DNA of 64,000 bases from an uncultured Dehalococcoidia bacterium (lineage in GTDB: Bacteria > Chloroflexota > Dehalococcoidia > Lucifugimonadales > GCA-2712585), in the NCBI GenBank assembly GCA_958295715.1, contig OY282371.1, positions 1,406,267 to 1,470,266 on the forward strand. The letters are read 5' to 3'. The position numbers and the translations under genes are program-made. This document shows, in pieces, positions 7,737 to 62,700 of the stretch. Positions within the stretch are counted from its first letter, which is position 1; each line of letters begins with the position of its first letter. The notes beneath the pieces were generated by a model that saw only the letters and a program-made list of their open reading frames with translations, searched no databases and was not told the DNA's origin.

Positions 7737-9005
<1,269 letters not shown>

Positions 9006-9989: not shown

Positions 9990-9999
9990 GGCCGCCTCG

Positions 10000-10353: not shown

Positions 10354-10368
10354 GATGGACCTCCTGGT

Positions 10369-11235: not shown

Positions 11236-11248
11236 ATACCGCTCCCGG

Positions 11249-12283
11249 TCATGGCCGCGACGGGGCCAGGTTGGTTGTGTAGGGACTGCGGACGACGCCT
11301 TCCTCGGTGATTATGGCGTCAATATACCGGTGGGGCGTCACGTCGAAGGCCGGGTTGCGAATCCCTATGCCGTCGGCGGCGGTCTTCACGCCTTCCAACC
11401 GGGACACCTCCAAGGGATCCCGTTCCTCAATGGGTATCTCGTCTCCGGAGGCGATGGAGAAGTCAATAGTGCTGGTCGGCGCCGCCACGTAGAAGGGCGC
11501 GCCGTTCTCCTTGGCGAGCACGGCCAGGGCGTAGGTGCCAATTTTGTTGGCCGTGTCCCCGTTGGCCGCGATGCGGTCGGCGCCGACTATGACGCAGCGG
11601 ACGGCCCCCTCTCGCATGAGGAGCCCGGCGGCGGAGTCCACCACCATGGTGGCGGGGATGCCCAGCCTCAGCATCTCCCAGGCGGTGAGCCGCGCGCCCT
11701 GAAGGAAGGGCCTGGTCTCGGTGTGAAAGACCTCAAAGCGGGCGCCCTCCTCCCAAGCGGCGCGTATCACGCCGAGGGCGGTTCCGTAGCCCGCCGTGGC
11801 CAGGGCGCCGGTGTTGCAGTGGGTGAGAACGGCCCCCTGGCTCCTGAGCAGCGCGGCCCCGTGACGTCCTATGCGCCTGTTCACCTCAACGTCCTGCTTC
11901 TGTATGGCCTTCGCCTCGGCCAGCAGGCGTTGGGCCGCATCCGCAGGGCCGGGCGTGGCTTCGGCCAAGGCCAAGAGTCGCTCAACGGCCCAGGCGAGGT
12001 TGACCGCGGTGGGCCGGGCCGCCCTAATCTCCTTGGCCGCCTCTCTGAGGAGGGGCAGGAACCGGGACGCGTCCTCACTCGCCACCTGCCGCGCGGCCAT
12101 GGCCATGGCGTAGGCGGCGGCGACGCCGATGGCCGGCGCCCCCCTGACCCGCATCTCCCGGATGGCGTCGACGACCTGCCGGTAGTCGGAAAGCTCCAGG
12201 GTCACCTCGTGGTGAGGCAACCTGGTCTGGTCCAACAGGGCCAGATTACCGGACACCCAGGCTATGGGTTGTATTTCATCCAA
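11249..12283 (-). CDS. mtnA: S-methyl-5-thioribose-1-phosphate isomerase
   Basis: 344 aa eIF-2B alpha/beta/delta family. LLDQTRLP, THCNTGALAT, GADRIAANGDTANKIGTY. Confidence 0.9.
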   Translation of the reverse strand: MDEIQPIAWVSGNLALLDQTRLPHHEVTLELSDYRQVVDAIREMRVRGAPAIGVAAAYAMAMAARQVASEDASRFLPLLREAAKEIRAARPTAVNLAWAVERLLALAEATPGPADAAQRLLAEAKAIQKQDVEVNRRIGRHGAALLRSQGAVLTHCNTGALATAGYGTALGVIRAAWEEGARFEVFHTETRPFLQGARLTAWEMLRLGIPATMVVDSAAGLLMREGAVRCVIVGADRIAANGDTANKIGTYALAVLAKENGAPFYVAAPTSTIDFSIASGDEIPIEERDPLEVSRLEGVKTAADGIGIRNPAFDVTPHRYIDAIITEEGVVRSPYTTNLAPSRP

Positions 12284-12399: not shown

Positions 12400-12775
12400 G
12401 GCTCCCCTCTCGTCATTCCCGCGCAGGCGGGAATCCATCCCATCCCCTCTTTTACCTCAAGGCAATCGCACACCGGCGCAAAGAGCCAGTAAGAGCTAGT
12501 CTTGTTACGGACAAACCGGCTTAAGGTCTCCATCCCTCGTTAGGGGAGAGACGGGGGCGGGGGTCGCGGCGCAACGGGTGGCGGGTTGCCCAAGCACAAC
12601 GGAGTGGGGGGAGGGGATGGATTCCCGCCTTCGCGGGAATGACGGGAGGGGCGGCGGCGGGTATGACGGCGGCGGGCGGGCCGGAATCGGGAAGACCCCA
12701 ATCCAAAACCAACGCTCCGCAAAACAAAAATGGGCACACGTGCCCTTCCCGCCTGCGCGGGAATGACGGCGGGTA
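12400..12775. repeat. REP/NIME-like repeat cluster
   Basis: Fwd unit at 12412-12436 and rev unit at 12619-12643. Composite rev unit at 12697-12769 = hairpin module (GGGCACacGTGCCC at 12732-12745) fused to a REP. Confidence 0.85.
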
Positions 12776-15530: not shown

Positions 15531-15997
15531 AGCTGGGACCCGCCGAGTATGACCAGGACAACTCCAACAACGGCAAAGGTCGTTCCAAGGAGGACGCGGG
15601 GTGTGACGAGCTCAAGCCGCCTAAGAAAGAGGTGGGCCAGGACCAGGGTGAACAGGGGGTTGAGGGACATTATGGGCGTGACGACGGACACCGGCGCGCG
15701 GCTGACGGCGAATATCAGGAGGGTGACGGCCGTGGCCGAGGATACGCCGGCGGCCATCATGAAGCCGAAGTGACGCTTGGGCGCGGCGACGGTGAAGTCT
15801 ATGCTGCGGTGGAAGATGAGGTAGACGATGGCGGCCCCGAAGAGGAGGGAGAAGGCGGTGAAGACTATGGCGGAGATGTCGCTCTGCTCCAAGGCCGTCT
15901 TGGCTATCACCGTGCTGCCGCCGTAGAAGGCGGAGGCGGTGAGGGCGAAGCCGTATCCCATAAAAAGACGCCGCCGGTCGGAGAGTTTAGGACGCAT
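15527..15997 (-). CDS. EamA-domain (DMT) half-transporter, second ORF
   Basis: Start taken at ATG 15997 ([10 protein letters not shown]). About 5 hydrophobic segments. Overlaps the preceding EamA ORF by 11 nt in another frame and overlaps purL by ATGA. Confidence 0.6.
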   Translation of the reverse strand: MRPKLSDRRRLFMGYGFALTASAFYGGSTVIAKTALEQSDISAIVFTAFSLLFGAAIVYLIFHRSIDFTVAAPKRHFGFMMAAGVSSATAVTLLIFAVSRAPVSVVTPIMSLNPLFTLVLAHLFLRRLELVTPRVLLGTTFAVVGVVLVILGGSQL

Positions 15998-16463
15998 TGG
16001 AGCGCCTTTCGCTGAGGATAAGGCCCATGCCCAGGACGGTGACGAGGATGCCAAGGCCGATGAGCAGATTGGGCCTCTCTCCAAGGGCTATCATGGCTAT
16101 CACGGTGGCGAACACGGGGCTTACGGCCAGCATGGGCGTTGAGCGCGAGGCGCCGGCCAGCTGTATGGCGGTGTAGCTCAGGAGCCGCGCCAGGGGGAAG
16201 GTGACGATGGCGAAGATGAGGCACCACAGGAAGGCTATAGGGGTGAGGGAACGCACGTTGGCCGTTTGGGTGGTGAAGACCAGAACCAGGACCACCAGCG
16301 CGCCCGTGCACAGGGACACGAACACGCCCGTGGTCGGTGATATGCGTTGGAGTCCCAGCCGGGTGAAGATGGCCGAGGCGGCGAACCCGAAGGTGGCCAC
16401 GAAGGCGACGAGCACGGCCAGTATCACGTTACTCGCCCGCCAAGGCTTGAATGATGGACTCAA
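15987..16463 (-). CDS. EamA-domain (DMT) half-transporter, first ORF
   Basis: 158 aa, about 5 hydrophobic segments. An alternative GTG start at 16427 lies just after the purQ stop. Confidence 0.6.
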
Positions 16464-22638: not shown

Positions 22639-23520
22639 TCAGGGCCGGGCGCGGCGGCCCAGGAAGCTGAGTATCCAGTCGGAGAGCAGGTCCGGGCGGT
22701 CCTCCTGAAGCAGGTAGCCGCCGTCGTCCAGGACTTGAAGCTCCGACCGGGGAATGAGGCCCTGGAGTAGGGTGGCCTCGGCCCGGCCGGACGCGGGCCC
22801 CGCCCCGGAGCCGATGAGCAGGGTTGGCGCGTTCAGACCGGGCAAACTGCCGCGAATGGCCTTCATGCGGAGGGATACGTAGTCGTTTCCCGACCGGGGG
22901 GCCATGCGCGTGAAGGCCAGCAGGCCGGCGCGGGAGGCGTAGTCGGGGAAGGGGCTGCGGTACTCGGCCTTCACCTGCGGGTCCAGGTTCTCGCTGTAGT
23001 GGACCCGCCCCCGGAGGGACGCGTCTCTAAGGGAGAGGTTCAGGCGGCGAATCAGCAGGTCGCCCAGAAAGGAGCGGTGGAGCAGGCCCCGGAGCTTGGA
23101 GGCCGGGCTACGGAGGACGGGGGCTGTGTTCATCAGAACCAGGGCCCCGGTGTTGTCCGCGCGGTTGATGGCGTAGTCAAGGGCCATCAGGCCGCCCCAC
23201 TCCTGGCCCACCAAGACCAGGTTCCTCAGCCCCAACTCCCTTATGAAGATCTCCAGGTTGTCGCTGTGGAAGTCGAAGGTGTGGGCGCTGAGGGCGGCGG
23301 GTTTGTCGGAGCCGCCAAAGCCGATGCAGTCCGGGGCGAAGCATCCCCAGCCCGCTTGGGCCAGGCGGGAGAACAGGTGGCGGTAGGAGTAGCCGGAGGA
23401 GTAGTTGCCATGAAGGAGGACCACGGCGCACGACTCCTCGGCTCCCGAATGGAAATAGTGCATCCGGTAGCCGTTGACGATGACGTAGGAGTCGGGGTAG
23501 GGGAACCGGTGATGGCTCAT
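22639..23520 (-). CDS. alpha/beta-fold hydrolase (haloalkane dehalogenase/epoxide hydrolase-like)
   Basis: Start set at MSHHRFPYP (ATG 23520). HGNYSSGYSYRHL oxyanion region. Nucleophile elbow reads VGQEWGG. Confidence 0.75.
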   Translation of the reverse strand: MSHHRFPYPDSYVIVNGYRMHYFHSGAEESCAVVLLHGNYSSGYSYRHLFSRLAQAGWGCFAPDCIGFGGSDKPAALSAHTFDFHSDNLEIFIRELGLRNLVLVGQEWGGLMALDYAINRADNTGALVLMNTAPVLRSPASKLRGLLHRSFLGDLLIRRLNLSLRDASLRGRVHYSENLDPQVKAEYRSPFPDYASRAGLLAFTRMAPRSGNDYVSLRMKAIRGSLPGLNAPTLLIGSGAGPASGRAEATLLQGLIPRSELQVLDDGGYLLQEDRPDLLSDWILSFLGRRARP

Positions 23521-23591
23521 GGATAAGTTCCTAACCCGCGCCGGACCCGGCGAAGTTTGTCGTTGGGCTGAGAGGGGAACGACCCGCCGCT

Positions 23592-24548
23592 TTAGAAGAT
23601 GGCTATGGGGTTCACCGGGGCGCCGGTGCCGTTGGCCATTCGCAAGGGCGTCACCACGGTGAGGAACTCGTAGCGGCCCTCCTGCTTGCACATGCGGGCC
23701 ACCTCTTCAAAGTTGCAGTTGTCGAGTATCCAGCAGCCCATGGCGGTGAGGATGACCTGGTGAACGGGCAGGGGAAACTCCGGGTAACCGCTGGGCAGGA
23801 CGTCCTGGGCCAGGTCCCCGCCCAACATGGCGATGTCCCGCTCCCTCAGCCAGGGGAGGCAGGCGGCGTGAAGGCCGGAGGCCCCGCCGTCGGGGGCGCT
23901 GGGGTTCCTGGGGCCTATCGCGTTGCGCCGTTCCCAGTTCCCGGTGCGTATGAGGAGGAGATCCCCCGACTCTACGGTGACGCCTAACTCCTTCTCCGCG
24001 GCGTCCAAGTCTTCGGGGAAGATGGCCTCGCGCTCCTGCATGTAGTCGACGCCCTTGAGGGTTGGAAAGTCGAAGAGGACGCCCCTGGTGACCACGCCAT
24101 TCCTGAGCAGGTCGATGCTCTCCAAGGTGGCCCCGCCGCGGGTGTGGACGGCGTCGGCGGGATGGCCGTTGTACATCTTGTCGCCGTCGAACCAGTGGGA
24201 CAGGGCGTCAACGTGGGTCATCACGTAGCCGTGGAAGACGAAGCCGATATACTCGCTGGCGTTGTGGGAGGCCATCTCCTTCTTGCCGGGGGTGTCCCGC
24301 CACCCCTCGCCGCTCTCTATCATGTAAAGGGTTGGAGGCACCGGGCCGTCGGCGGTGGTTTCCGCCACGATGGGGCGGCCCATGGTGACGCTGATTCCCT
24401 TCTCGACCAGGTTCACGGCTTGGAGCCGCTTCTCCGGGGTAATCAGGTTCATGGCGCCCAACTGGTCTTCAGCGCCCCAGCGTCCCCAGTTGCTGAGGGA
24501 GCTGTGGTACTGGCGAATGTCCGCCGCGGTGGGGAGCGTTCTTGCCAT
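23592..24548 (-). CDS. cyclase-family protein (kynurenine formamidase-like fold)
   Basis: 318 aa. SNWGRWGAEDQLGAMN start and a THVDALSHW metal motif. Confidence 0.75.
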   Translation of the reverse strand: MARTLPTAADIRQYHSSLSNWGRWGAEDQLGAMNLITPEKRLQAVNLVEKGISVTMGRPIVAETTADGPVPPTLYMIESGEGWRDTPGKKEMASHNASEYIGFVFHGYVMTHVDALSHWFDGDKMYNGHPADAVHTRGGATLESIDLLRNGVVTRGVLFDFPTLKGVDYMQEREAIFPEDLDAAEKELGVTVESGDLLLIRTGNWERRNAIGPRNPSAPDGGASGLHAACLPWLRERDIAMLGGDLAQDVLPSGYPEFPLPVHQVILTAMGCWILDNCNFEEVARMCKQEGRYEFLTVVTPLRMANGTGAPVNPIAIF

Positions 24549-27224: not shown

Positions 27225-27701
27225 ACGCCTCTCGCCCCCTGCCGGCCATCGACCCTCCCTTCCGTCATTCCCGCGCAGGCGGGAAGGGCACGCGTGCCCG
27301 CTTAGGTTTGAAGAGCGTGGTTCTGCGTTGGAGGCTTTTGCCCACCCCTATCCGCATTCCCGCCCTCTTATCCGTCATTCCCGCGCAGGCGGGAATCGAT
27401 CCCCTCCTTCCGGCATTGCGACGGGGCAACGGCGCAACGGCTCGCAACCCCGGCCCTCTTTCCGTCATTCCCGCGCAGGCGGGAATCCATCTTCCACCCC
27501 TCTATTACGCCAAGGCGACCCGCGCAAATCGCCGGCAAACGCTTGCCCCCTTTCCGGCCAAGACCCTGAATGCCCCCCATATCGTCAAGGAGACAAGGAC
27601 GGCAGCGCCACGAGGGACGCGCCGGAAACGCCTCTGCGGGTGAGACCGGAATTCGGGGCGCCGGATTTGGGTCGGGGCCTCCCTGGATTCCCGCCTGCGC
27701 G
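27225..27701. repeat. REP/NIME-like repeat cluster
   Basis: Composite fwd unit at 27264-27335 (REP + GGGCACgcGTGCCC + T-rich tail). Fwd REPs at 27374-27398 and 27464-27488. Module C at 27556-27664. Truncated rev REP at 27685-27701. Confidence 0.85.
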
Positions 27702-27755
27702 TAGAAACCAGGGAGGGAGGCGGGCCTGGGAGAGCGAGCGACCCCCGTCCGGAGT

Positions 27756-28124
27756 CTAGAACTTCAGCCGGGTTTTGCGATGGGCTACTGTGATGACCTG
27801 GTATTCCATACAGCCAACGACGCCGCCTGTGGACTTCACGACAACCAGGTAAATGTTAAAGGCCTCGCTCTGCCTCTTATACCCCTCGGCGCCTATCTTA
27901 GAGCGGGCGCGCCTGCGGCATCTGCTATCCATTGAAACGATGTATACGTTCTTATTGTCACGCTTCTTATTAGACTTACGATATTTGTGGTGTCTGAGTT
28001 TGCCATTGAGCAACATGGTTTCTATGTGTTCCCGATTTATTCCGCGCTGCTGGAACCTCCTTTGAGCGTGATCCGAGAAAAAGTAACTGAAACCGGGGTC
28101 ATGGTAGAAATTCACCACGTTCAT
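27756..28124 (-). CDS. DUF4258-like small protein (toxin-type fold)
   Basis: 122 aa, low GC (line 27961 hand count 40%). FSDHAQRRFQQRGINREHIETMLLNG and a C-terminal NIYLVVV..VITVAHRK pattern. Confidence 0.55.
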   Translation of the reverse strand: MNVVNFYHDPGFSYFFSDHAQRRFQQRGINREHIETMLLNGKLRHHKYRKSNKKRDNKNVYIVSMDSRCRRRARSKIGAEGYKRQSEAFNIYLVVVKSTGGVVGCMEYQVITVAHRKTRLKF

Positions 28125-28264
28125 GTGAAACCTCCCTTAAGTTATGTTCTCTGAAGCTGCTGCGCCCAAACCTCGCCCACAGATTAACCATAAATCAGGC
28201 TGTGCGGGGATATTTACGACGGGGCGAGCGGCATGGCGCCGCGACTTCAATTCAGCGAAAAAGT

Positions 28265-28292
28265 ATTATAACACAAAAGAGCATTTTGTCAA
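28265..28292 (-). promoter_or_regulatory. near-consensus promoter TTGACA-16-TATAAT
   Basis: Minus-strand hexamers at 28292-28287 and 28270-28265. About 135-nt leader to the ATG at 28124 with a GGGAGG RBS. Confidence 0.5.
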
Positions 28293-28337
28293 GTACTTAT
28301 GCGCCGGATTTCAGGGGAAATAGGGGGATGGGGGGAT

Positions 28338-28443
28338 GGATTCCCGCCTGCGCGGGAATGACGGACAGGAGGCGGGAATGCGGACAGGGGTAGGCAGAAG
28401 CCTCCAACGCAGAACCGGCTCTCTTCAAAACTAAGTGGGCGCC
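28338..28443. repeat. REP unit plus reverse hairpin/terminator-like module
   Basis: Rev REP at 28338-28362. Reverse module B at 28399-28443 (ccaacgcagaaccggctctcttcaaaactaagtGGGCGCCC), about 60 nt downstream of the stop of the 590-aa gene and in terminator orientation. Confidence 0.8.
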
Positions 28444-28502
28444 CCGGTCCCCGCTTACCCGCAAGCGCCAGCTAGTCTACCCACCCCGGCAGCCGGCGCC
28501 GG

Positions 28503-30275
28503 CTAGGTCTGGCGGGTCTTCTGGTGGGGGCCGAGGTAGCCTATCAACACCTTCTGCCGCTCGTCGTCCCAGGCGAAGGCGATGCGGATGTTGTACTGCG
28601 GGTTGCCGCGCACGCCCTTCCCAACGTGGTGGTCCAGGTTATAGAGCCTGTCCTCCACGTGGGTGGTGTACCACTCGAGGAACTGCTCCCTCGTCACCTT
28701 GGTCTGGCCCGACTTGTAGGACCAGCCGGGGCAGGCCTCCTTTATCCCGCTCTTGAAGTCAGGCGCGGAGCCGGGGTTGGGGTTGACCCGGTGGGAACGG
28801 TACTCGGTGGCAAGCCAGGCCAGGGCGTCAAAGACCTCCTGCGGGTTCCGGAAGGGGTTGTCCTTGTCGGACTTGGAGTTGAGGGCAAAGAGCAGCTCGT
28901 CGGGGTAGGTCTTCTTGGCGTGGTCGATGGCCTCGTTGACGCTGGCGAAGGTCGGCGTCTGCGACTCGTCGTCCTGGCCGCCGGCCGCCTTCGCCGCGAC
29001 GTACATGTCGCGCCAGTACTCCTCCATCTGCTGGAGACGCGATATCTCGCTCCTGAACTCGCTGTTCTCAGCGTCAAGGAACTCCTTGTCATCCTGGAGG
29101 CCGGAGTTCTGCCGCTCCAACTCCTGGTTCCGCGACTCCAAGGCCCGGTAGTCCTCAGCCGGGACCACCTGGTCCTCCGGGGCGGGTCCGGCTTCAAGGC
29201 CACCGGCGCCGGCGGGGGAGCCCTCGGTTCCGTCTAACGGCTCGGACGGGTCTCCGCCGGCTTCTTGGGAAGCGGCTTCCGCGGCGGCGGCGGCCTTCTC
29301 CTGGGCGGCGTCGTAATCTGACATGAGGCCGCGCCAACTCTCCACGGCGGCCAGGATGCCATCCTCCTTTTCCGACCTCTGAGGGGCGCGGGCGACCTCC
29401 TCCGCCCTTGAGGGGGCCTGAGGGCGCAGGAGGCGGTACTCCTCCAACAAATCCCCCAGCCGGTTGGCCACGGCCAAGGCCTCCGGGATGACGCCGGCCC
29501 TTGAGGTGGCGTCGTCTAGCCAGGAGTCGAGGGAAACGTCCAGGTACAGCAGGTCGTCCCGGAACTCGCCGGCGGCCTTAGAGATGGCGTCTTTTAGGGC
29601 TTCTGTCTGAACGCCGGCGCGGTCGGCCTCCTTTGTCACCGCGATTTTCGCCAGAGCGTGAACGAAGCCTTCAACGTCGTCCCAGTCCGGCGCGTCTGGG
29701 GGAAGCGCGTCCAACTGCTGAAGGAAGCCGTCAAGGAGGGAAGAACTGGGCGGCGACGGCTCCCGGGAGTCCGGGACGCGGCCTGAAAGACAGCAGAGCA
29801 TGAGGTGAACGTCGTTCACGTTCAGGCCGTCGTCAGCCTCAAGGATGGCGGCTAAATGGGCCGTATAGTCCGCCCACTCCCACAGGGAGTCGAAACTGCC
29901 CTCCTTGAAGCCGGGGCAGCCGGCGGGGATGCCCGCGCCTTCGAGTCGTTCAGCCACGGCGCCGCGGAGTTGGGGGTGGGACTCGACCCACGTCTTGAGG
30001 ACGGCGCCCGCCAGTTTATCGGCTCCTTCGATAATCCCCACTAGGGCGGGAATTTTGAGTTGATTGGGCGACGCACGGTCCGCGTTCTGGAAGCCGTCCA
30101 CCTTCACGTTGTTGCGGATGGCGTAGTTGAAGGAGTCGCGGAGGCTTTTCGGCGCCTTGCCCCGGAATTCAAGGGCGCGTTTGACGACGGCTTGGGCATA
30201 TTCGGGGTCTAACCGGTGGAACATGGCGTTGATGGGCAGGTCTGGGCCGGTTGCGGTGGCGTTCTCGGTGGTCAT
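28503..30275 (-). CDS. hypothetical 590-aa protein, acidic linker + coiled coil + conserved-looking C-terminal domain
   Basis: Start set at ATG 30275 (AGGAGG 9 nt upstream). No catalytic motif recognised. Heptad-like ESRNQELERQNSGLQDDKEFLDAENSEFRSEISRLQQ. C-terminus ..NIRIAFAWDDERQKVLIGYLGPHQKT. Confidence 0.7.
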   Translation of the reverse strand: MTTENATATGPDLPINAMFHRLDPEYAQAVVKRALEFRGKAPKSLRDSFNYAIRNNVKVDGFQNADRASPNQLKIPALVGIIEGADKLAGAVLKTWVESHPQLRGAVAERLEGAGIPAGCPGFKEGSFDSLWEWADYTAHLAAILEADDGLNVNDVHLMLCCLSGRVPDSREPSPPSSSLLDGFLQQLDALPPDAPDWDDVEGFVHALAKIAVTKEADRAGVQTEALKDAISKAAGEFRDDLLYLDVSLDSWLDDATSRAGVIPEALAVANRLGDLLEEYRLLRPQAPSRAEEVARAPQRSEKEDGILAAVESWRGLMSDYDAAQEKAAAAAEAASQEAGGDPSEPLDGTEGSPAGAGGLEAGPAPEDQVVPAEDYRALESRNQELERQNSGLQDDKEFLDAENSEFRSEISRLQQMEEYWRDMYVAAKAAGGQDDESQTPTFASVNEAIDHAKKTYPDELLFALNSKSDKDNPFRNPQEVFDALAWLATEYRSHRVNPNPGSAPDFKSGIKEACPGWSYKSGQTKVTREQFLEWYTTHVEDRLYNLDHHVGKGVRGNPQYNIRIAFAWDDERQKVLIGYLGPHQKTRQT

Positions 30276-30484
30276 GGCGTTGAGCCTCCTATTTTGGCGA
30301 TGGTGAGCTATCATACCTGCTGCCAGCCCAACGCGCCACCCTTGGAGCGTCCCAAGGCCGGCCGGAGGCTTTACGCTGGCTTGAGGTTGTCGCTCTGACG
30401 GGATGGAGACGGGGACGCGGCGGGAGGAAACGACCCCTTGGCCGCCTTGCCGGTCAGTCGTGGAGGGCCAGCAAGGATAAGCGG

Positions 30485-32743
30485 CTACTTGCTAAGGAAG
30501 ACTTTGAATTGGGCCGGGTTCTGGCCGAATTTGGCGACAAGGTTTCCACAAGACAAAGTGATTCGCTTCGCCGACAACTGACTATTCAAGTACAATCCGT
30601 TTGTCAGTTGCTTAGGATTACCGAAAGGCCGTTTGCTTGGATGAACTGACGACGTATGAATCAAATACGTTTTGCTACTCTTCTTATCCGCAAGTTGGAT
30701 CCCCTTGCCACTCTCGGTAGTAAGCAGACCTCGTCTTATCGACCACTCGGCGGTCTCAAGGATGAGGCTAATCCAAACATCTTTAATCGCCTTCTCTTTT
30801 TCGCCTGGAAATCGAACGCGCTGCGGCTTTATCGACCTGTCTTTACTTCCCGTGCTCTTGTGCCACTGGCCAAGACCCTCAAAGGTCACCCACTCACCCG
30901 GACCGGTTGGAGGAAGGTCCGGGAGGTCTTGGGATGAGTCTTCAAGGACGCTTTCCTCCGATGAGCCGCCTGAGACCAGACCGACCTCCCTCGCTTCAGC
31001 CTCAAAGAGCCCCATCAGCCGGTCCCTAACCTTATTCAAGACAAGCCCTTTGTCTACCGGCTGGGCCTCTAGCTCGCCAAATTCTTTCTTCCAATCCGCA
31101 AGCTCTTTCCTGAAGCCCTCATCCCATTTAACGAATTGCCATGACCATTGTAGCCTAGTTCGTGGCTGTTCTGACGGTGGAAGCCCGGTAAGATGACGCT
31201 TAAACCGCTTTTCCAGCTTGTTCTCGTTGCTTAACTCCGACTCACGGGTCTCAATGTCGCGCTTCAACTCATCCATTCGCTGCTCACGAACTTTCACATG
31301 GCGTATCCGCTCATTCTTTATCAGGTTCTTAAGGAAGGGGTCACGGTCGGGTGAGAGTTCGTCATCGGGCTGCGGCATAGACGCCTCCTCTAGTTCTTTG
31401 GTAACAGACAATTTGGCCTTAATATGGGCGTCGTAGTGGCACCAATCGCAAACCGGGTCGTGGTTTTTAGGGCAGGATGCCTTCAACCCCCACCGCTTCC
31501 ACGCCCGCCACACGACACACCGGCCGCAGATTTCGCCGAAGGGCTCGCCGCAATGGCCGCACTGGTGGCTGGAGGCGGGAGATAGGCCTTTGCAGTCCGG
31601 GCAATGGACCACCGGGGATTCTCCGGATGGCCGCACATGTTCCCTAAGTTTTAACGACCACTCCCTGACTTCCTCCGGCAGCCCGTGGAGCGGCGCGTTG
31701 CCAGCCAAGTCCAGGACCAGACAGTCGCCACCGTCCTCTTTTGGACGCAGGCCGCGTCCCACCATTTGCAGGTAGAGGGATAGGCTCAGGGTGGGACGGG
31801 TCAACATGACACAGGCGGCGTCGGGCAGGTCGAATCCCTCGGTGGCTACGTCCACGTTGACCAGGGCTTTAAGGGTTCCCTGTTGGAACCGGGCTATGAT
31901 ATCAGCGCGCTCCTCGTCAGGAGTTTTACCCACCATACAGGCGGCGGGAATACCGGCGGCATTGAACTCTTCGACAAGGTTTTCGGCGTGTCCTACCGAA
32001 ACGGCGTAGACAACGGTTTGACGATCATCGCCATGGCTTTGCCAGAACCGCAAGGCGCCGGCGGTGAGAATGTCACGGCCTTCGTTCGCCCGTTCAATGC
32101 CCGGCTCGTTGTAGTCCCCCGTGCTGGCAACCGTCCCGCCCTTAATCCGCTCCTCCTCTGCCGGCGATAGGACCCGCGCCTTGCAGAGCCATTTGTCGGA
32201 CTGTAAGTCTACGACCTGAGGGCCAGAGAGCAAGGTTTTGAACAGGTGATCAAACCCTTCCTTCTCAGAGAGGCGCCACGGCGTGGCCGTCATGCCCAAT
32301 ACCGGACCGGGCCATTGCTCCATGGCCCTAGCCCAACCCTCGGCTGGGGCATGGTGGGCCTCGTCTATAATCATCAGGTCGCCGTCGTCGTAGCGGTCCC
32401 ACACGCTTCTATGGTCGTTGCGGCGGCTCACTGTCTGGGCCATGAGGATAACGACGCCGTTGGTTATTACCGGAGCGTCGGAGCTTGGAGTCCAAACGAT
32501 GTTAGCCGCGGCCGGAACCCCGGCTTGGCTCAACATGCTCTCCGTTTGTTTGGCCAACCCCTTGCGGTGGGTGAGCCAGACCGCTTTGCGTCCGTCTCCC
32601 AGCCACCGGTTCAACAGCGCGCCGGCGATTTGGGTTTTTCCGCCGCCGGTGGGGAGTTGCATCATAACCCTGGCGTCCGGACGAGCCAGGGCCTCATCCA
32701 CCTGCCTTAGCAACTCCTCCTGGTAGGGCCGTACTTCAATCAA
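30485..32743 (-). CDS. SF2 (ResIII/DEAH) helicase with Cys-rich zinc-ribbon and unassigned C-terminal domain
   Basis: 752 aa. RPYQ, PTGGGKT (aa 31-37), DEAH (127-130), MTATP, QMVGRGLR. 9 Cys in aa 381-435. The 3' third of the gene is low GC (45-47% in two hand-counted lines). Confidence 0.85.
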   Translation of the reverse strand: MIEVRPYQEELLRQVDEALARPDARVMMQLPTGGGKTQIAGALLNRWLGDGRKAVWLTHRKGLAKQTESMLSQAGVPAAANIVWTPSSDAPVITNGVVILMAQTVSRRNDHRSVWDRYDDGDLMIIDEAHHAPAEGWARAMEQWPGPVLGMTATPWRLSEKEGFDHLFKTLLSGPQVVDLQSDKWLCKARVLSPAEEERIKGGTVASTGDYNEPGIERANEGRDILTAGALRFWQSHGDDRQTVVYAVSVGHAENLVEEFNAAGIPAACMVGKTPDEERADIIARFQQGTLKALVNVDVATEGFDLPDAACVMLTRPTLSLSLYLQMVGRGLRPKEDGGDCLVLDLAGNAPLHGLPEEVREWSLKLREHVRPSGESPVVHCPDCKGLSPASSHQCGHCGEPFGEICGRCVVWRAWKRWGLKASCPKNHDPVCDWCHYDAHIKAKLSVTKELEEASMPQPDDELSPDRDPFLKNLIKNERIRHVKVREQRMDELKRDIETRESELSNENKLEKRFKRHLTGLPPSEQPRTRLQWSWQFVKWDEGFRKELADWKKEFGELEAQPVDKGLVLNKVRDRLMGLFEAEAREVGLVSGGSSEESVLEDSSQDLPDLPPTGPGEWVTFEGLGQWHKSTGSKDRSIKPQRVRFPGEKEKAIKDVWISLILETAEWSIRRGLLTTESGKGIQLADKKSSKTYLIHTSSVHPSKRPFGNPKQLTNGLYLNSQLSAKRITLSCGNLVAKFGQNPAQFKVFLSK

Positions 32744-34625: not shown

Positions 34626-34680
34626 GCCGTGGGGGGAACGGTTGCGTCTCCCCCCATCCGCCCTTCCCGCCTACTATTCC

Positions 34681-34996
34681 GTCATTCCCGCGCAGGCGGG
34701 AAGGGCGCGTGCGCCCACTTTGTCTTGACGAGCGTTCGCCCTGCTTTGGGCTGCTAGATTCCCGCCTTCACCTCTGTTCCGTCATTCCCGCGCAGGCGGG
34801 AAGGGCGCGTGCGCCCACTTTGTTTTGAAGAGCGTTGGTCCTGCTTTGGGCTGCTAGATTCCCGCCTCCCCCATCCGTCATTCCCGCGCAGGCGGGAAGG
34901 GCGCGTGCGCCCACTTTGTTTTGAAGAGCGTTGGTCCTGCTTTGGGCTGCTAGATTCCCGCCTCCCCATCCGTCATTCCCGCGCAGGCGGGAATCC
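34681..34996 (+). repeat. tandem array of 3 composite units (100, 96, 95 bp) plus terminal REP
   Basis: Units start at 34681, 34781 and 34877. Each unit = GTCATTCCCGCGCAGGCGGGAA + GGGCGCgtGCGCCC + ACTTTGTTTTGA.. + tggtcctgctttgggctgctagattcccgcc. Closing REP at 34972-34996. Confidence 0.9.
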
Positions 34997-35146
34997 ATCC
35001 CCTCTTGACCTTGCGCCGGGACAACCGCTCCACGGCGCGCGCTCCCATCCGTATAAGCGTCCCGGGTTGGCGCCTTCCGGCTCTCGCCCACAGTTATTAT
35101 CCGTAATGGTTGGATGGTCTGTTCATCTGATGAGAGGAGGGAAGAT

Positions 35147-35225
35147 GGATTCCCGCCTGCGTGGGAATGACGGGAAGGGGGGCGGGAATGACGGAAGGGG
35201 GAGAAAAGGGAATGACGGATAAGAG
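35147..35225. repeat. reverse REP followed by tandem GGGAATGACGG half-units
   Basis: GGATTCCCGCCTGCGTGGGAATGACGG at 35147-35171, then gcgggaatgacgg and gggaatgacgg repeats. Confidence 0.8.
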
Positions 35226-37219: not shown

Positions 37220-38110
37220 CGAGCGCCGGCCCTGCGTTAGGGGATGGATTCCCGCCCCTCCTTTCCGTCATTCCCGTGAAAACGGGAATCCAGGAACCCT
37301 ACACAGCAGAACCAACGCCCCAAACCCCGGCGTCGACCCGTCGGTTGCGCCCTCAACGCGGGTCTTGGCCGTAACGGGACTAGCGCTTACCGGCGATTTG
37401 CGCTGTTGCCCTAGTCTAATATAGGGAGGAAAGATGGATTCCCGCCTGCGCGGGAATGACGGAGTGGGGCAGGCGGGAAGGGCGCGGGTGCCCGCTTAAG
37501 TTTTGAAGAGGGCTGTTCCTGCGTTTGGGGGCTTCCTGGATTCCCGTTTTCACGGGAATGACGGATAAGAGGGCGGGAATGGCGATTGCGCTAGAGTCTT
37601 GCCAAGGGAGGCGTGGCCTCCCGCTTGCCTGCTAAGGGGCCGCCAAAGCGTTTACCCTTTCCCGTCATTCCCGCGCAGGCGGGAATCCATCTTCCTTACC
37701 GCTGCTGCGACGCCTTGGAGCCACGCGTTGGCCGCCCTCCGGCCATTGCCCGCCCCTCCCCTTTTCCGTCATTCCCGCGCAGGCGGGAATCCAGGAAGGT
37801 TTCGACTCAAAACCGGCGCCCCGAATTCCGGCCTCGCCCGTAGAGGCGGTTCCGGCGCACACGCCCCCTCGTGGACGCTGCCGTCCTTGTCCCCTTGACG
37901 AAATGGGGGCATTCAGGGTCTTGGCCGTAAGGCCCCGGCCCTTACCTGCGCGGCGCGGCCCTGTCGCAACCAAGTAAGGAAGATGGATTCCCGCCTGCGC
38001 GGGAATGACGGAGGGAGGGGAGCGGGAATGACGAAGTGGGGCAGGCGGGAAGGGCGCGTGGGGGAGCGGGAATGACGTGGGGGGTAGGCGCGGCCTCGCG
38101 CCGGGGGAGC
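37220..38110. repeat. largest REP/NIME-like mosaic cluster
   Basis: REP units at 37267-37291 (variant GTCATTCCCGTGAAAACGGGAATCC), 37436-37460 rev, 37528-37552 rev variant, 37664-37688 fwd, 37768-37792 fwd and 37985-38009 rev. Partial composite at 37469-37530. Module C at 37813-37926. Half-unit run at 38000-38080. Confidence 0.9.
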
Positions 38111-41722: not shown

Positions 41723-41914
41723 CACGGCCCCCGGCCCCGCGGCGTTGCCCTCTCCTACTCCTTTCCCATCACTCCTGCCTTCTGTTCGTCATTCCCCCTC
41801 CCCCCTCGTCGCGCCGGGCCAACCGCACTAGGGCGCGCCCACCCATATGACACCCGCCGGTAGGTCAGAGCCGAGGCGTGGTCTATGGGGTCTGTTCTAC
41901 GACGTGGCCTTCCT

Positions 41915-42025
41915 GGATTCCCGCCTACGCGGGAATGACGGAAGGGAGGGGGCGGGAATGCGGAGGGGTGGGGGCGGGAATGACGGAGGGGAGGGGGCGG
42001 GAATGCGGAGGGGAGAGGGGGGATG
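41915..42025. repeat. reverse REP plus about 4 tandem GGGGCGGGAATG(A/C)GGAGGGG half-units
   Basis: GGATTCCCGCCTACGCGGGAATGACGG at 41915-41941, followed by about 30-bp periodic half-units up to about 42025. Confidence 0.8.
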
Positions 42026-42155
42026 GTGGCGTGGCAGGGACGACGGCGGGGCAAGGGGAACAGCGGCGGGAGGGGAGGGGGCTGGCGGCGTGGCTTGGGG
42101 GATGGATGGCATGTATAGTAGTGTGCTGCCACGGAACGCCGGATGGACGGAGGCC

Positions 42156-43031
42156 ATGGGAGAGTTGACCCCCCTAATAGCCCTGGGGCTGGTGGCTTTG
42201 GGCATTGGAGCCAGCAGCTACGGCGTCCTCATCGGCTCCGGCGGCGGGTTCATCGTCGCGCCGCTGCTCATCATCCTATTCGGGGTGGACTACAACGTCG
42301 CGGTGGGAACGAGTCTGTTCACTGTGGCCCTGGCCTCCATCTCCGGCTCCGTGTCGTATCTGTACCTCCGGCGGGTGGACCTGCGGTCGGGGCTGCTGTT
42401 CAGCGCGGCGGCCGTCCCGGGGGCCGTGCTGGGCATCTTCGGGCTGAAGCTGGTGGCGGAGGGTTCCTTCGAGATACTCTTCGGGGCCTTCCTGTCGCTG
42501 CTGGGCTTCTACGTGGCCTTCCGTCCTGAGAGCGCGCGAAAGGGCATTGTGAAGACGACTCATAAGGAGGAGGGCGGCCACAGGTTCTCGGCGCCCAGGC
42601 GGTTCCAGGCCTTTGGAGTCACCAGACGAAGGATTTACACGTCGGACGTGGGCACCTACCGGTACCAGTACAACGAGCCGGGGGCGGTGGCCACCAACGG
42701 GTTGTTCGGGTTCCTATCCAGCTTCTTCGGCATGGGCGGCGGCCCCATACGCACGCCCACGCTGGTCTACCTGTTCCGGTTCCCGGTGCTGGTGGCCACC
42801 GCCACGTCGGTGTTCACCCAGGCCATCTACACCACCATCGGGACGGCGGGCCACCTGATAGACGGCAACGTAGACATAGTCAGGGCCCTGCTGGTGGGCG
42901 TGGGCGTCGTGGCCGGGGCCCAGGTTGGAGTGCATCTGTCGGGACTGTTCAGAAGCGCCTGGATCATGCGGCTGCTGTCCCTGGGCCTTCTGGGGATAGG
43001 AATCCAGCTAATACTGAAGGGCGCGTTCTAG
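42156..43031 (+). CDS. TauE/SafE family sulfite exporter-like membrane protein
   Basis: Start chosen at MGELTPLIALG (an alternative ATG at 42102 exists). Multiple TM helices with a GSGGGFIVAPLL motif. The upstream part of the track ORF is repeat translation. Confidence 0.75.
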   Translation: MGELTPLIALGLVALGIGASSYGVLIGSGGGFIVAPLLIILFGVDYNVAVGTSLFTVALASISGSVSYLYLRRVDLRSGLLFSAAAVPGAVLGIFGLKLVAEGSFEILFGAFLSLLGFYVAFRPESARKGIVKTTHKEEGGHRFSAPRRFQAFGVTRRRIYTSDVGTYRYQYNEPGAVATNGLFGFLSSFFGMGGGPIRTPTLVYLFRFPVLVATATSVFTQAIYTTIGTAGHLIDGNVDIVRALLVGVGVVAGAQVGVHLSGLFRSAWIMRLLSLGLLGIGIQLILKGAF

Positions 43032-43110: not shown

Positions 43111-43386
43111 TTAGCCGCCGGCGACGGCGGGAACGATGCTTATCTCGTCGCCGGACTGGGTGGAGGTGTCCACCCCCTGGAGAAACCGGACGTCCTCACC
43201 GTTGAGGTAGATGTTGACGAAGTAACGCAGCCCTCCGGCTTCATCCAGCAGACGCTCCTTGAATCCGGGGTAGTCGGCCTCCATGCGCTCGATGAACTCG
43301 GCGATGGTTGAGGCGTCTACCTCCACCTTGTCCTGATTGTTGGTCAGGCGCCTTAGGGGGGTGGGGACTCGCACAAGAACTGCCAT
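43111..43386 (-). CDS. ThiS/MoaD-family sulfur-carrier protein (C-terminal GG)
   Basis: 91 aa ending ..ISIVPAVAGG. Confidence 0.8.
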   Translation of the reverse strand: MAVLVRVPTPLRRLTNNQDKVEVDASTIAEFIERMEADYPGFKERLLDEAGGLRYFVNIYLNGEDVRFLQGVDTSTQSGDEISIVPAVAGG

Positions 43387-43437
43387 GGGACGGTTACCTC
43401 CTTGAATGAACGGGCTTGAATGAACGGGATGCGTGAA

Positions 43438-43680
43438 TCAGCCTTCTATAACGTCTCCTGAGATGGGGTCCACCCTAACGCCTACGGACTTCACCCAGGC
43501 GACGCCCTGCCGGATCTCCTGGTCGTCGCCTTCCAACTCCAGGATGACCCAACCCATCTCCTCGCGAACGTCGGCGCGCCGGATGTTGGTCACGAGGTTG
43601 AACCTCTGGCCGAGGTTGTAGATGATGGGCTGGGGAACCAGCGCGGCGGGAAAGGTGAACTTGACCCTCTGATTAGCCAT
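43438..43680 (-). CDS. NIL-domain protein
   Basis: 80 aa from ATG 43680 (MANQRVKFTFPAALVPQPIIYNLGQRFNLVTNIRRADV..). The rest of the 252-aa track ORF overlaps the thrC-like gene and is rejected. Confidence 0.7.
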   Translation of the reverse strand: MANQRVKFTFPAALVPQPIIYNLGQRFNLVTNIRRADVREEMGWVILELEGDDQEIRQGVAWVKSVGVRVDPISGDVIEG

Positions 43681-43685
43681 ATCGT

Positions 43686-44930
43686 TTACCTCGCCGAGGG
43701 TGAAAGGCCGTGGAGGGCCTCTTCGAACTCTCTCATGTTGGGCCTGATGGCGAGGGGATGGACCACGTCTCCCACCACCTCCTGAGTCTTTAGGCCGTTG
43801 CCGGTGATGTAGGCCACGGTCAACTCGTCCCTGCCGATGGCCCCCCTCTCCGTCAACCCCTTCAGGGCCGATATTACCACACCGCCCGCCGTTTCGGTAA
43901 ATATGCCCTCGGTTTCGGCAAGGAGCTTCATGCCCTGGGCCACCTCTTCTTCGTGGACGCCGTGGGCGCCGCCGCCGGAACTCGTCATGGCCCGAATGGC
44001 GTAGATGCCGTCGGCCGGGTTGCCGATGGCCAGGGACTTGGCCACGGAGTTGGGGCGCACGGGCATGACCATCTCCTCGCCGGCGTTGAAGGCGTCCACC
44101 ACCGGGGAGCAGCCTCGGGCCTGGGCGGCGTGCATCCGGGTGGGAACGGGGCCTTCCATCAGCCCAACGGAGACCATCTCGTTGAACCCCTTCCATATCT
44201 TGGAGAGCAGGGCGCCGGAGGCGACGGGGACGATGGCGTGGTCGGGGAAGCGCCAGCCCAGCTGCTCGGCGACCTCCAAGCCCAAGGTCTTGCTGCCCTC
44301 GGCGTAGAAGGGGCGCATGTTTATGTTAACGAAGGCCCACCGGTAGCTGTCGGCTATCTCGCTGCAAAGGCGGTTCACCTCGTCGTAGCCGCCCTGAACG
44401 GCGACGAGGGTGGAGCCGTAAATGGCGGCGCCGATTATCTTGCCGGCCTCCAGGTCCGCCGGCATGAAGACCACGGACCGCATACCCGCGCGGGCGGCGT
44501 GGGCCCCAACGGCGCAGGCCAGGTTGCCGGTGGAGGCGCAGCTGAGGGTGTCGAAGCCGAACTCCAGGGCCTTGGTGGCCGCCACGGATACGACCCTGTC
44601 TTTGAAGGAAAATGAGGGGTTTACGCTGTCGTTCTTCAGGTAGAGGTTATCCAGGCCCAGAACTCTGCCAAGGTTGTTGGCCTTGATTAGGGGGGTGAAG
44701 CCCGCGTGGATGTCTATGGCGTTCTCGGCGTCCACGGGGAGAAGGTCCCGGTAGCGCCATATGGTGAGGGGGCCGTTGGCGATGCGGCGGCGGCTGGTCG
44801 CTCTGGCGATGGCCTCGTAGTCGTAGGCCGTCTCCAAGGGGCCAAAGCAGAAGTCGCAGACGTTCAGAGGCTCAACGGGATATTCCCGAGCGCATTCTCT
44901 GCATCGTAGGCACGTTACGAAAGGCGCCAT
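43686..44930 (-). CDS. threonine-synthase-like PLP enzyme with N-terminal Cys4 zinc ribbon
   Basis: 414 aa. CLRCRECAREY..CDFC ribbon, PLP Lys region NPSFSFKDR, fold-type II PLP body. Confidence 0.8.
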   Translation of the reverse strand: MAPFVTCLRCRECAREYPVEPLNVCDFCFGPLETAYDYEAIARATSRRRIANGPLTIWRYRDLLPVDAENAIDIHAGFTPLIKANNLGRVLGLDNLYLKNDSVNPSFSFKDRVVSVAATKALEFGFDTLSCASTGNLACAVGAHAARAGMRSVVFMPADLEAGKIIGAAIYGSTLVAVQGGYDEVNRLCSEIADSYRWAFVNINMRPFYAEGSKTLGLEVAEQLGWRFPDHAIVPVASGALLSKIWKGFNEMVSVGLMEGPVPTRMHAAQARGCSPVVDAFNAGEEMVMPVRPNSVAKSLAIGNPADGIYAIRAMTSSGGGAHGVHEEEVAQGMKLLAETEGIFTETAGGVVISALKGLTERGAIGRDELTVAYITGNGLKTQEVVGDVVHPLAIRPNMREFEEALHGLSPSAR

Positions 44931-44998: not shown

Positions 44999-45027
44999 AT
45001 GTTAACAGGGGGATGGCGGCGTGTCAA
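44999..45027 (-). promoter_or_regulatory. candidate promoter TTGACA-17-TAACAT for the thrC-like operon
   Basis: Minus-strand hexamers at 45027-45022 and 45004-44999, giving a leader of about 60-65 nt before the ATG at 44930. Confidence 0.45.
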
Positions 45028-45156: not shown

Positions 45157-45185
45157 AACATAGCTGATGTCGCTTCTTTTGTCAA
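45157..45185 (-). promoter_or_regulatory. candidate promoter TTGACA-17-TATGTT (drives a short hairpin-terminated transcript or a long leader)
   Basis: Minus-strand hexamers at 45185-45180 and 45162-45157. The GTGATTCC/GGAATCAC hairpin and T-rich tract lie downstream, at about 45095-45138. Confidence 0.35.
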
Positions 45186-60639: not shown

Positions 60640-60986
60640 GGCTTTCATGGGCGGGGTTGCCTCCCGTCCGTCATTCCCGCTCTCACCCTCTTATCCGTCA
60701 TTCCCGCGCAGGCGGGAAGGGCGCGTGCGCCCACTTAGTTTTGAGTAGCGCTGGTTCTGCGCGTTAGGTGTCCGTCATCCGCCGCCGGGTTACCCCCGTT
60801 CCAACGCGCGCCCCTCCCTTCGTCATTCCCGCTCCCTCCCTTCCGTCATTCCCGCGCAGGCGGGAAGGGCGCGTGCGCCCACTTAGTTTTGAGGAGAGCC
60901 GGTTCTGCGTTGGAGGCTTCCCGGCGTTCCCACCTCCCCACTCGTCATTCCCGCTTCTCCCTCCCGTCATTCCCGCGAAGGCGGGA
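60640..60986. repeat. REP/NIME-like repeat cluster, right end interrupted by IS
   Basis: Composite fwd units at 60697-60768 and 60845-60917 (GGGCGCgtGCGCCC hairpins). Half-units at 60669 and 60830. REP at 60966-60986 is cut after GCGGGA. Confidence 0.85.
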
Positions 60987-62021: not shown

Positions 62022-62700
62022 GAATCCATCCCCCCTTATCCCCGTTGCGACAGGTGGCTGGCGCGGGATTGCCTCCCCGTCCGTCATTCCCGCGCCCTCC
62101 CTTCCGTCATTCCCGCGCAGGCGGGAATCCATCTCCTCTTATCCCCGTTTCGACAGGTGGCTGGCCCGTGGTTGCCGCCCCGTCCGTCATTCCCGCTTCC
62201 CTCTCCCGTCATTCCCGCGCAGGCGGGAATCCATCCCCTCTTATCCCCGTTGCGACAGGTGGCTAGCGCGTGGTTGCCGCCCCGTCCGTCATTCCCGCCC
62301 CCCTCCATCCGTCATTCCCGTGAAAACGGGAATCCAGGAACCCTTCATGGCAAAACCAGCGCTTCAACCCCTAGCGTCGCCTTGTGGGCGGCCCTCCGGC
62401 CCGCCGCTCGTAGGGGTTGGGTTGTCCGTTCATATGATTAGAGGGGGAAGATGGATTCCCGCCTGCGCGGGAATGACGGATTCGGGGGGCGGGGTTCGGG
62501 GCGCTGGCTCTGCGTTGAGGCCTTCCTGGATTCCCGCCTGCGCGGGAATGACGGGAAGGGAGGCGCGGGCGGTGGTAGCGAGCGTGACCGGTGGCCCCGG
62601 GGCTTGGGGCGTTGGCTTTGGGGTGTAAGGTTCCTGGATTCCCGTTTTCACGGGAATGACGGATAGGGGGGCGGCAATGACGGATTCGGGCGGGAATTCA
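62022..62700. repeat. REP/NIME-like cluster with a 3 x 102-bp tandem array
   Basis: Tandem units begin at 62022, 62124 and 62226 (..GAATCCATCCCCTCTTATCCCCGTTGCGACAGGTGGCTGGCGCGTGGTTGCCGCCCCGTCCGTCATTCCCGC..). REPs at 62106, 62208 and 62311 (variant) fwd. REPs at 62453, 62528 and 62636 (variant) rev. Confidence 0.9.

Follow-up and report, generated by a model that had tools for sequence, protein, structure and literature searches.

A putative MetM/MetO-type operon for homocysteine synthesis with a strictly linked NIL protein in an uncultured Dehalococcoidia bacterium

We have analysed a 64,000-nucleotide stretch of contig OY282371.1 from an uncultured Dehalococcoidia bacterium (the whole stretch is called the window below). 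The database names of near-identical proteins likewise point to Chloroflexota, class Dehalococcoidia, with relatives of the SAR202 type. Three adjacent genes on its minus strand encode a MetM-like pyridoxal 5'-phosphate (PLP) enzyme of the threonine synthase (ThrC) family (positions 43686-44930, 414 aa), a stand-alone NIL-domain protein (43438-43680, 80 aa) and a MetO/CysO-type sulfur carrier with a beta-grasp fold (43111-43386, 91 aa). Judged from sequence comparison, there is a somewhat better than even chance that these genes direct homocysteine synthesis of the MetM/MetO type with the NIL protein as a methionine-responsive accessory subunit. This enzyme and this carrier appear to be new MetM/MetO family members, from an uncultured lineage. 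The pathway itself is already known in kind, and the strictly linked NIL subunit, together with its carrier-fused forms, is an undescribed variant of it. A preliminary description of this DNA, made from the letters alone, had remarked that no characterised system with this stand-alone NIL protein was known, and this holds: we found no published link between NIL and a MetM/MetO-type system in the literature searched.

The open reading frames (ORFs) and their Pfam matches (PF00291, E 5e-65, for the enzyme; PF09383, E 1.4e-13, for NIL; PF02597, E 5e-16, for the carrier) confirm the three genes of the preliminary description, namely a ThrC-like protein with a Cys4 ribbon, an 80-aa NIL protein and a 91-aa carrier that ends in Gly-Gly (GG). 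The genes are arranged head to tail in the order enzyme, NIL, carrier. There are 5 nt between the stop codon of the enzyme gene and the ATG of the NIL gene, and 51 nt between NIL and carrier. All three genes have their own ribosome-binding site, with AAGGAG before the enzyme and a strong AAGGAGG before the carrier. A consensus scan shows two sigma-70-like promoter matches upstream of the enzyme gene, where 0.4 are expected, both of them on the minus strand. The first (44999-45027; TTGACA, a 17 nt spacer and TAACAT, with TG before it) is about 70 nt 5' of the ATG of the MetM-like gene, and the second (45157-45185; TTGACA, a 17 nt spacer and TATGTT) is located 3' of the hsp20 hairpin. The three genes are one operon. 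Inside the 51-nt spacer between NIL and carrier, at 43401-43428, the 14-nt unit CCCGTTCATTCAAG is exactly duplicated in tandem.

Loci for comparison were collected with a profile made from diverse Zn-ribbon representatives, which was scanned against one genome per species; the resulting 82 loci were read by six-frame phmmer. The carrier gene directly follows the MetM-like gene in 76 of the 82 loci, and the enzyme-NIL-carrier trio is present in 20 further Chloroflexota loci. A reciprocal search of metagenomes, seeded with NIL, gave 80 loci. There is a MetM-like gene upstream in all 75 loci with enough upstream DNA and a carrier gene downstream in all 71 loci with enough downstream DNA. This reciprocal test used a narrow NIL alignment and covers NIL relatives that are 60-78% identical. 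As the trio recurs both in the Chloroflexota loci and in the NIL-seeded metagenome loci, the arrangement is far beyond chance.

An Rfam scan found no riboswitch in the operon leader and no Rfam family anywhere in the window. In seven related loci an S-adenosylmethionine (SAM) riboswitch (RF00162) is located directly upstream of the MetM-like gene: all four loci from Actinomycetota and the Chloroflexota loci L023, L024 and L082. This places the MetM-like gene of these relatives in the methionine regulon.

In Streptomyces albulus the ThrC homologue MetM converts O-phosphohomoserine to homocysteine with the thiocarboxylate of the carrier MetO; MoeZ loads MetO, and the JAMM protease Mec matures it (Hasebe et al., 2024, Appl Environ Microbiol 90:e01247-24, according to the summaries in GapMind 2026 and in PMC12172450). 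A corresponding route can be proposed for the window. The terminal glycine of the carrier would be adenylated and thiocarboxylated by a MoeB/MoeZ-type E1 encoded elsewhere, and a rhodanese may supply the sulfur for this loading. The ThrC-like enzyme would take O-phosphohomoserine and, like threonine synthase, eliminate phosphate. By analogy with the published reaction of MetM, and in view of the gene context, the sulfur of the carrier thiocarboxylate, and not water, would then be added at C-gamma, and homocysteine would be released. The NIL protein would be a third, accessory subunit whose ACT-like domain has methionine, or a metabolite close to it, as its most likely ligand. With its ligand bound, NIL would contact the carrier and/or the enzyme and throttle sulfur transfer, which would amount to post-translational feedback at the threonine/methionine branch.

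NIL is present in 32 of the 82 loci. In Chloroflexota it occurs in 20 of 31 loci and the order is always enzyme, NIL, carrier. In Nitrospirota it occurs in all eight loci and the order is enzyme, carrier, NIL, which is also the order in the unclassified locus L064. In Syntrophaceae, Planctomycetia and Omnitrophota NIL is fused to the carrier. It is absent from Cyanobacteria, Actinomycetota and Nitrospinota, and several Dehalococcoidia loci also have the enzyme-carrier pair without NIL. The fused proteins have the layout carrier, GG, short linker, NIL; one fusion used as a query retrieved at least 120 sequence clusters, all of about 171 aa and all with both domains. The fused-carrier loci contain, in this order, genes for Rrf2, the MetM-like enzyme, ThiS-NIL, ThiF plus rhodanese (MoeZ-like), Prok-JAB and a CysK/M-like protein, so that JAMM and MoeZ-like E1 genes are near the fused forms. 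Because the reactive glycine is internal in the fusion, cleavage must expose it. An AlphaFold2 (AF2) model of a natural carrier-NIL fusion (predicted TM score, pTM, 0.50) has two folded domains and an AGGS junction that is disordered (predicted local distance difference test, pLDDT, <50), and the predicted disorder fits an accessible cleavage site. Taken together, the three gene orders, the Rosetta-stone fusion and the strict two-way linkage make a functional link of NIL with the enzyme and the carrier very likely.

The NIL protein scores 50.9 bits against PF09383 (cut-off 24). Its AF2 model (pLDDT 89.9) has the fold beta-alpha-beta-beta-alpha-beta, for which the best match is the C2 domain of MetN (TM 0.83, root-mean-square deviation 1.1 A); the next matches include ACT domains, for example that of phosphoglycerate dehydrogenase. 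There is no ferredoxin domain and not a single cysteine in the protein, which rules out a role as carrier of persulfide sulfur or of an Fe-S cluster. Residue N32, in the motif TNIRRADV, aligns with N295 of MetN and is kept in at least 90% of 33 cluster-linked NIL sequences. In MetN the N295A change lowers binding of L-Met to an undetectable level (PMC6233128), and the NIL domain of MA1822, of the unrelated methanogen L-ASST homocysteine synthase, is described as a methionine-binding regulatory module (PMC12068725). The tail GDVIEG (residues 75-80, 43438-43455) is almost invariant, with G75, D76 and E79 invariant, and AF2 leaves it disordered (pLDDT <50). This tail of the stand-alone NIL has no counterpart in MetN C2, and a tail that is both conserved and predicted to be disordered suggests peptide-type partner binding.

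Whole phyla do without NIL, and a regulator would account for this better than a catalytic part would. The SAM riboswitch is rare where NIL is present: 1 of the 24 loci with NIL has it, as against 6 of the 11 non-cyanobacterial loci that lack NIL (Fisher p 0.002, or 0.05 with cyanobacteria included, kinship ignored in both). From the MetN C2 fold, N32, the analogy with the NIL domain of MA1822, the dispensability of NIL and the rarity of the riboswitch we infer that NIL may act as a trans-acting, methionine-responsive regulatory partner that provides feedback at the O-phosphohomoserine branch point. A more specific form of this proposal, which we put forward tentatively and at clearly less than even chance, is that NIL would be a dedicated trans-acting sensor of methionine (or homocysteine/SAM), made stoichiometrically with the carrier, released from carrier-GG-NIL by JAMM in some phyla, and gating the delivery of thiocarboxylate to the homocysteine synthase.

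Several observations count against a purely regulatory role for NIL. The riboswitch/NIL contrast ignores kinship; Cyanobacteria have neither riboswitch nor NIL, and L082 has both. A search for specificity positions found one phylogeny-confounded position in the enzyme and none in the carrier that track NIL. An invariant arginine, R34, occupies the position of I297 of MetN, beside the Asn needed for methionine binding and on its strand; the ligand could therefore be something other than methionine, such as an anionic compound or the carrier tail. Finally, there is no confident domain-domain packing in the model of the fusion, which neither supports nor excludes direct interaction.

The main rival explanation accepts the MetM/MetO pathway and regards NIL as a stoichiometric adaptor or chaperone of the carrier and not as a sensor. 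Such an adaptor could dock the carrier on the enzyme or on the E1, protect the thiocarboxylate tail, or maintain the pre-carrier in solution before it is cleaved, much as MoaE is the partner of MoaD. The carrier-GG-NIL fusions agree with this, as they guarantee 1:1 synthesis of two parts that need to be separated at GG. They resemble MoaX, a MoaD-MoaE fusion for which cleavage is needed for activity (PMC4326299). The conserved disordered tail of NIL is typical of a partner-binding peptide and the invariant R34/R35 could bind a carboxylate or thiocarboxylate. However, Cyanobacteria, Actinomycetota, Nitrospinota and several Dehalococcoidia run the enzyme-carrier pair without NIL, hence NIL is not mechanistically required. 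Additionally, every characterised NIL domain is a ligand-binding regulatory module and the fusion model does not show confident intramolecular docking. We therefore consider the adaptor unlikely, while ranking it first among the alternatives to a methionine-responsive NIL.

The second rival concerns the enzyme, which could be the real or a bifunctional threonine synthase of the organism, with the carrier and NIL serving some other sulfur transfer. The protein is a fold-type II PLP enzyme. Its N-terminal Cys4 zinc ribbon (C10, C13, C25 and C28) is invariant or nearly so among its relatives and the PLP lysine, K110, is within the motif SFKDR. The enzyme scores 267 bits against TIGR00260 (thrC) and so passes the cut-off of 167, but with 290 bits it is under the cut-off of 303 for PRK08197, the Zn-ribbon ThrC type, and the remaining ThrC models score far under their cut-offs. 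Models for CysM and CysK score just 34-36 bits, and the enzyme is not the CysM-type partner that the CysO/CysM pathway has. The relatives of the enzyme, including distant representatives, are labelled threonine synthase in databases, and no second thrC was found in the window by phmmer with a ThrC probe. The TIGR00260 score, the labels and the lack of a second thrC in the window favour a threonine synthase, as does a cyanobacterial member of the clade reported to have threonine synthase and threonine deaminase activity in vitro (PMC12172450).

Against this, the enzyme groups apart from the ThrC paralogues of the same loci. There are 73 homologues in the 82 loci that are 55-84% identical to the window enzyme (phmmer), and they come from about ten phyla; clade members are found in Chloroflexota, Nitrospirota, Nitrospinota, Cyanobacteria, Actinomycetota, Aquificaceae, Planctomycetia, Omnitrophota and Syntrophaceae. 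Four loci (L018, L030, L055 and L077), from Nitrospirota and one Chloroflexota genome, contain a second ThrC of about 365 aa that has no ribbon and is 34-37% identical to the window enzyme. In a neighbour-joining tree the window enzyme is inside the MetM-like clade, with the riboswitch-controlled actinobacterial genes and Microcystis, and the ThrC paralogues branch apart. The paralogues encoded in operons with apgM-like and aspartate kinase genes form a separate branch, and the window enzyme does not group with these enzymes at the thrC position.

The clade also has motifs of its own, in a region that we take to be the phosphate loop of ThrC. The comparison is descriptive, with the true ThrC paralogues of the comparison set as the ThrC side. 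Where the MetM-like clade has FVNxNxRPYYxEGSKT, the paralogues have NSxNPxRxEGQK; the other pairs are PxASG and PVGNAGN, IGNPADG and IGNPASW, TEGIFTETAGG and EGIFCEPASA, and TGNGLKT and TGxGLKD. Moreover, relatives of the enzyme are under SAM riboswitches and not under threonine-related leaders, and the coupling with the carrier is near-universal. That the enzyme is the real or a bifunctional threonine synthase of the organism is very unlikely. The claim that the enzyme is not an ordinary threonine synthase but a member of the MetM-like clade is supported by the identities, motifs and tree, and the question of the preliminary description, whether it would group with bona fide ThrC, is answered in the negative. 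MetM is often misannotated as ThrC, according to GapMind 2026.

Three of the loci with a second ThrC have the gene order MetM-like, carrier, NIL, ThrC, apgM-like, aspartate kinase (L030, 118-6032; L055, 151-5723; L077, 5941-11378). The apgM family has been reported to include alternative homoserine kinases. Read from its gene content, this operon would make O-phosphohomoserine and split it two ways, with the branch point as one unit. The fourth, L018, is a Chloroflexota locus without NIL and has a T-box leader (7116-7542, 104 bits) just 3' of the carrier gene.

Two points weigh against assigning the MetM reaction to the window enzyme. The window enzyme is 57% identical to a Microcystis protein (L070), which is reported to be 51.6% identical to S. 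albulus MetM and to have a neighbour 47% identical to MetO (PMC12172450); the putative orthology of the window enzyme and carrier to MetM and MetO thus rests on a two-step identity chain and on gene context. The Microcystis homologue is the one reported to have threonine synthase and threonine deaminase activity in vitro, and it reportedly did not raise methionine in vivo (PMC12172450). Because of these reported activities, a dual activity of the window enzyme is possible.

The carrier ends in ...VPAVAGG, followed by the stop codon. It scores 61 bits against NF041918, and its best solved relatives are Mycobacterium tuberculosis CysO (3dwg_C, E 2e-19) and 4n6e_B; MoaD structures match much more weakly. 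It is 49-58% identical to the carriers that follow MetM-like genes in other phyla; with the L009 carrier the identity is 88%. The alternative raised in the preliminary description, a MoaD that belongs beside moaE, was not borne out: the carrier gene adjoins a ThrC-like gene in most loci, CysO is the closest solved structure and there is no MoaE in the window. Together with the SAM-riboswitch-linked and carrier-linked clade of the enzyme, the CysO-like carrier lends support to the MetM/MetO-type protein-thiocarboxylate route that had been proposed there. Many related carriers bear 1-7 residues past GG, which would have to be trimmed off. As GG is already the end of the window carrier, a JAMM protease is probably unnecessary for it.

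Neither an E1 (ThiF/MoeB) nor a JAMM gene turned up in the 64 kb, whether by Pfam annotation of every plausible ORF or by phmmer with E1 and JAMM probes, and the earlier remark that none is near the trio thus extends to the whole window. The organism would have to load the carrier by an E1 encoded elsewhere. The search of the 64 kb with Pfam on plausible ORFs and with phmmer probes for E1, JAMM, ThrC, CysK/M, aspartate kinase and apgM gave no further pathway gene. An alpha/beta hydrolase (22639-23691) that was considered as a MetX candidate is haloalkane-dehalogenase-like instead.

In related clusters the missing functions are present. The Nitrospirota loci L040, L045, L054, L074 and L075 (about 4100-9200 in each) contain, in this order, CysK/M-like, ThiF-type E1, MetM-like, carrier, NIL, second E1 and JAMM genes. 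The E1 and JAMM genes of such clusters make them a match for the set of MetO, MoeZ, Mec and MetM given in GapMind 2026. One carrier may serve both cysteine and homocysteine synthesis in those Nitrospirota. In the Dehalococcoidia locus L014 (3409-9900) the DNA downstream of a MetM-like/NIL/carrier trio has two CysK/M-like genes, three genes for carriers and one each for an E1 and a JAMM protein.

The carrier thiocarboxylate might be used on another acceptor, for example O-phosphoserine to give cysteine, or to make another thiol amino acid. CysO as the closest solved relative of the carrier would agree with this, and so would the CysK/M-like genes in the Nitrospirota clusters, where the carrier may be shared between pathways. 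However, cysteine already has a CysK/M-type enzyme of its own in those clusters, and the window enzyme has the ThrC and not the CysM scaffold. The SAM riboswitch and the neighbouring ThrC, apgM-like and aspartate kinase genes in relatives point to the homoserine branch. This rival is more improbable still than a threonine synthase. The preliminary description had left the product as homocysteine or cysteine; homocysteine is much the likelier, and cysteine is not favoured, as separate CysK/M-like genes share the clusters elsewhere.

The single-domain rhodanese to which the preliminary description had pointed is present at 10000-10353 on the minus strand (PF00581, E 4e-14) and has the catalytic Cys loop CAAGVRS. 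In NCBIfam it is closest to the rhodanese domains of MoeB/MoeZ and GlpE. The gene is part of a cluster for the methionine/SAM cycle and salvage (6477-12283, minus strand) that consists of metK, ahcY, a PfkB-family kinase gene, the rhodanese gene, MTAP (MTA phosphorylase) and MtnA. For the PfkB-family kinase (9006 to about 9953) the NCBIfam matches are weak and fall on other kinases of sugars or ribose; its place beside ahcY would suit an adenosine kinase. Finding a rhodanese amid methionine-cycle genes is unusual, and there may be a link with the supply of sulfur to the carrier, for which the protein is a candidate donor only.

A gene for a TauE/SafE-family (TSUP) membrane transporter (42156-43031, plus strand; PF01925, E 6e-41) lies next to the operon, as previously described, and is convergent with it, 79 nt from the stop codon of the carrier gene. 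The true start of this gene is probably near 42102-42156 rather than at 41847. A TauE gene is near the trio in 17 of the 23 metagenome loci with at least 3 kb downstream, and in both the genome and the metagenome sets the same TGT gene parts it from the carrier (25 of 25 loci). The intervening TGT gene points to inherited synteny with a local inversion or deletion and not to selection for linkage, the window having lost the spacer gene. That the trio and TauE form one sulfur-handling unit, for example with export or import of sulfite or organosulfonate feeding the carrier, is the least probable of the explanations and hardly credible: many Dehalococcoidia loci do have a TauE gene at most 3.2 kb from the trio, whichever way it is oriented, and in the window it is the direct neighbour, but the TGT gene intervenes in all of the loci compared, the only locus of another phylum with TauE nearby is the actinobacterial L080 (2.8 kb off), and the convergent orientation in the window means that the genes are not co-transcribed. 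We have therefore rejected TauE as a functional partner and regard it as context that probably has no functional part. The synteny extends in part to the flanking heat-shock genes (hsp20, dnaJ, a MerR-family regulator and clpB), of which L001 shares dnaJ, the MerR-family gene and clpB but not hsp20.

Some further features of the window were recorded. There is a REP-like short palindrome with the core CGTCATTCCCGC, as in ...CCGTCATTCCCGCGCAGGCGGGAATC..., in 48 copies between 28 and 62682, where 0.6 are expected. The copies are clustered at 28-435, 12411-12768, 27263-28363, 34680-35193, 37266-38077, 41787-41985, 60669-60976 and 62082-62682, mostly in arrays, tandem or inverted, that lie between annotated ORFs. 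Spurious long ORFs run through some copies, as in the N-terminal 100 codons of the TauE ORF. The region 27756-32743, which is partly in the lowest-GC stretch of the window (0.57 at 30-32 kb versus about 0.65), may be a mobile or defence island. It contains a 122-aa ORF, a gene for a 603-aa protein without a family match and a gene for a 752-aa RadD/type-I-restriction-like helicase that bears a Cys-rich insert and a long C-terminal extension. Nitrile hydratase genes (5151-6537, minus strand) adjoin metK; the alpha subunit is at 5151-5807 and the beta subunit is split into an N-terminal (6151-6537) and a C-terminal part (5804-6151). An EamA-family transporter (15527-16463, minus strand) is represented by two overlapping half-size ORFs (15987-16463 and 15527-16084), which may be due to a frameshift or to a naturally split gene.

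The operon can be compared with several known systems. As in S. albulus MetM/MetO, a ThrC-homologous PLP enzyme gene is directly before the gene of a ThiS/MoaD-fold carrier in the related loci, relatives of the window enzyme are under a SAM riboswitch (as reported for metM in PMC12172450), and MoeZ-like E1 and Mec-like JAMM genes occur in related clusters. In contrast with that system, the window has a NIL gene between enzyme and carrier, no riboswitch and no linked E1; its carrier ends at GG and needs no Mec trimming, and the host belongs to the Dehalococcoidia. In M. tuberculosis CysO/CysM (with Mec and MoeZ) the carrier is similar, and a thiocarboxylate attacks a PLP-bound intermediate that stems from a phospho-amino acid, as we propose here, but the partner in the window is ThrC-like with a Zn ribbon and not a CysM-type O-phosphoserine sulfhydrylase, and the predicted product is homocysteine.

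The NIL protein shares its Pfam family, its fold and N32 (Asn295 in MetN) with the MetN C2 domain (PDB 3DHW, 3DHX and 3TUZ). Unlike that C-terminal domain of an ATPase, it is free-standing with 80 aa, has R34 in place of Ile297 and an extra acidic tail, and its partner is a biosynthetic enzyme-carrier pair where the partner of MetN C2 is a transporter. The L-ASST NIL-ferredoxin MA1822 of methanogens and Desulfovibrio is similar in that a NIL domain is attached to a homocysteine-forming system. The window NIL has no ferredoxin, no cysteine and no DUF39/COG1900 partner; the Pfam annotation of the plausible ORFs of the window includes no DUF39/COG1900 or ferredoxin family. The chemistry of L-ASST uses aspartate semialdehyde and sulfide, whereas the reaction proposed for the window would use O-phosphohomoserine and a protein thiocarboxylate. 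Finally, MoaX (PMC4326299) and ubiquitin-fusion precursors are like the carrier-GG-NIL of relatives, which needs a cut after GG and has a JAMM gene nearby. The differences are that carrier and NIL are separate genes in the window and that the fused partner in relatives is a ligand-binding domain and not a catalytic subunit.

Homocysteine synthesis is a recurring gap in genome-based metabolic reconstructions (PMC5764234). If a MetM/MetO-type function of the operon is true, the MetM/MetO route is present in many Dehalococcoidia (SAR202-type included), in Nitrospirota and Nitrospinota and in further uncultured lineages, and the routine misnaming of its enzyme as threonine synthase affects predictions of auxotrophy. 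The carrier-GG-NIL fusions would be a bacterial ubiquitin-like precursor that needs processing to become active. If the NIL protein is a sensor, this would be, as far as is known, the first allosteric control of a sulfur-carrier-protein pathway and the third independent recruitment of NIL to methionine homeostasis, after the MetN importer and the methanogen L-ASST. As an unannotated but strictly linked third component, NIL offers a testable handle on the regulation of protein-thiocarboxylate pathways.

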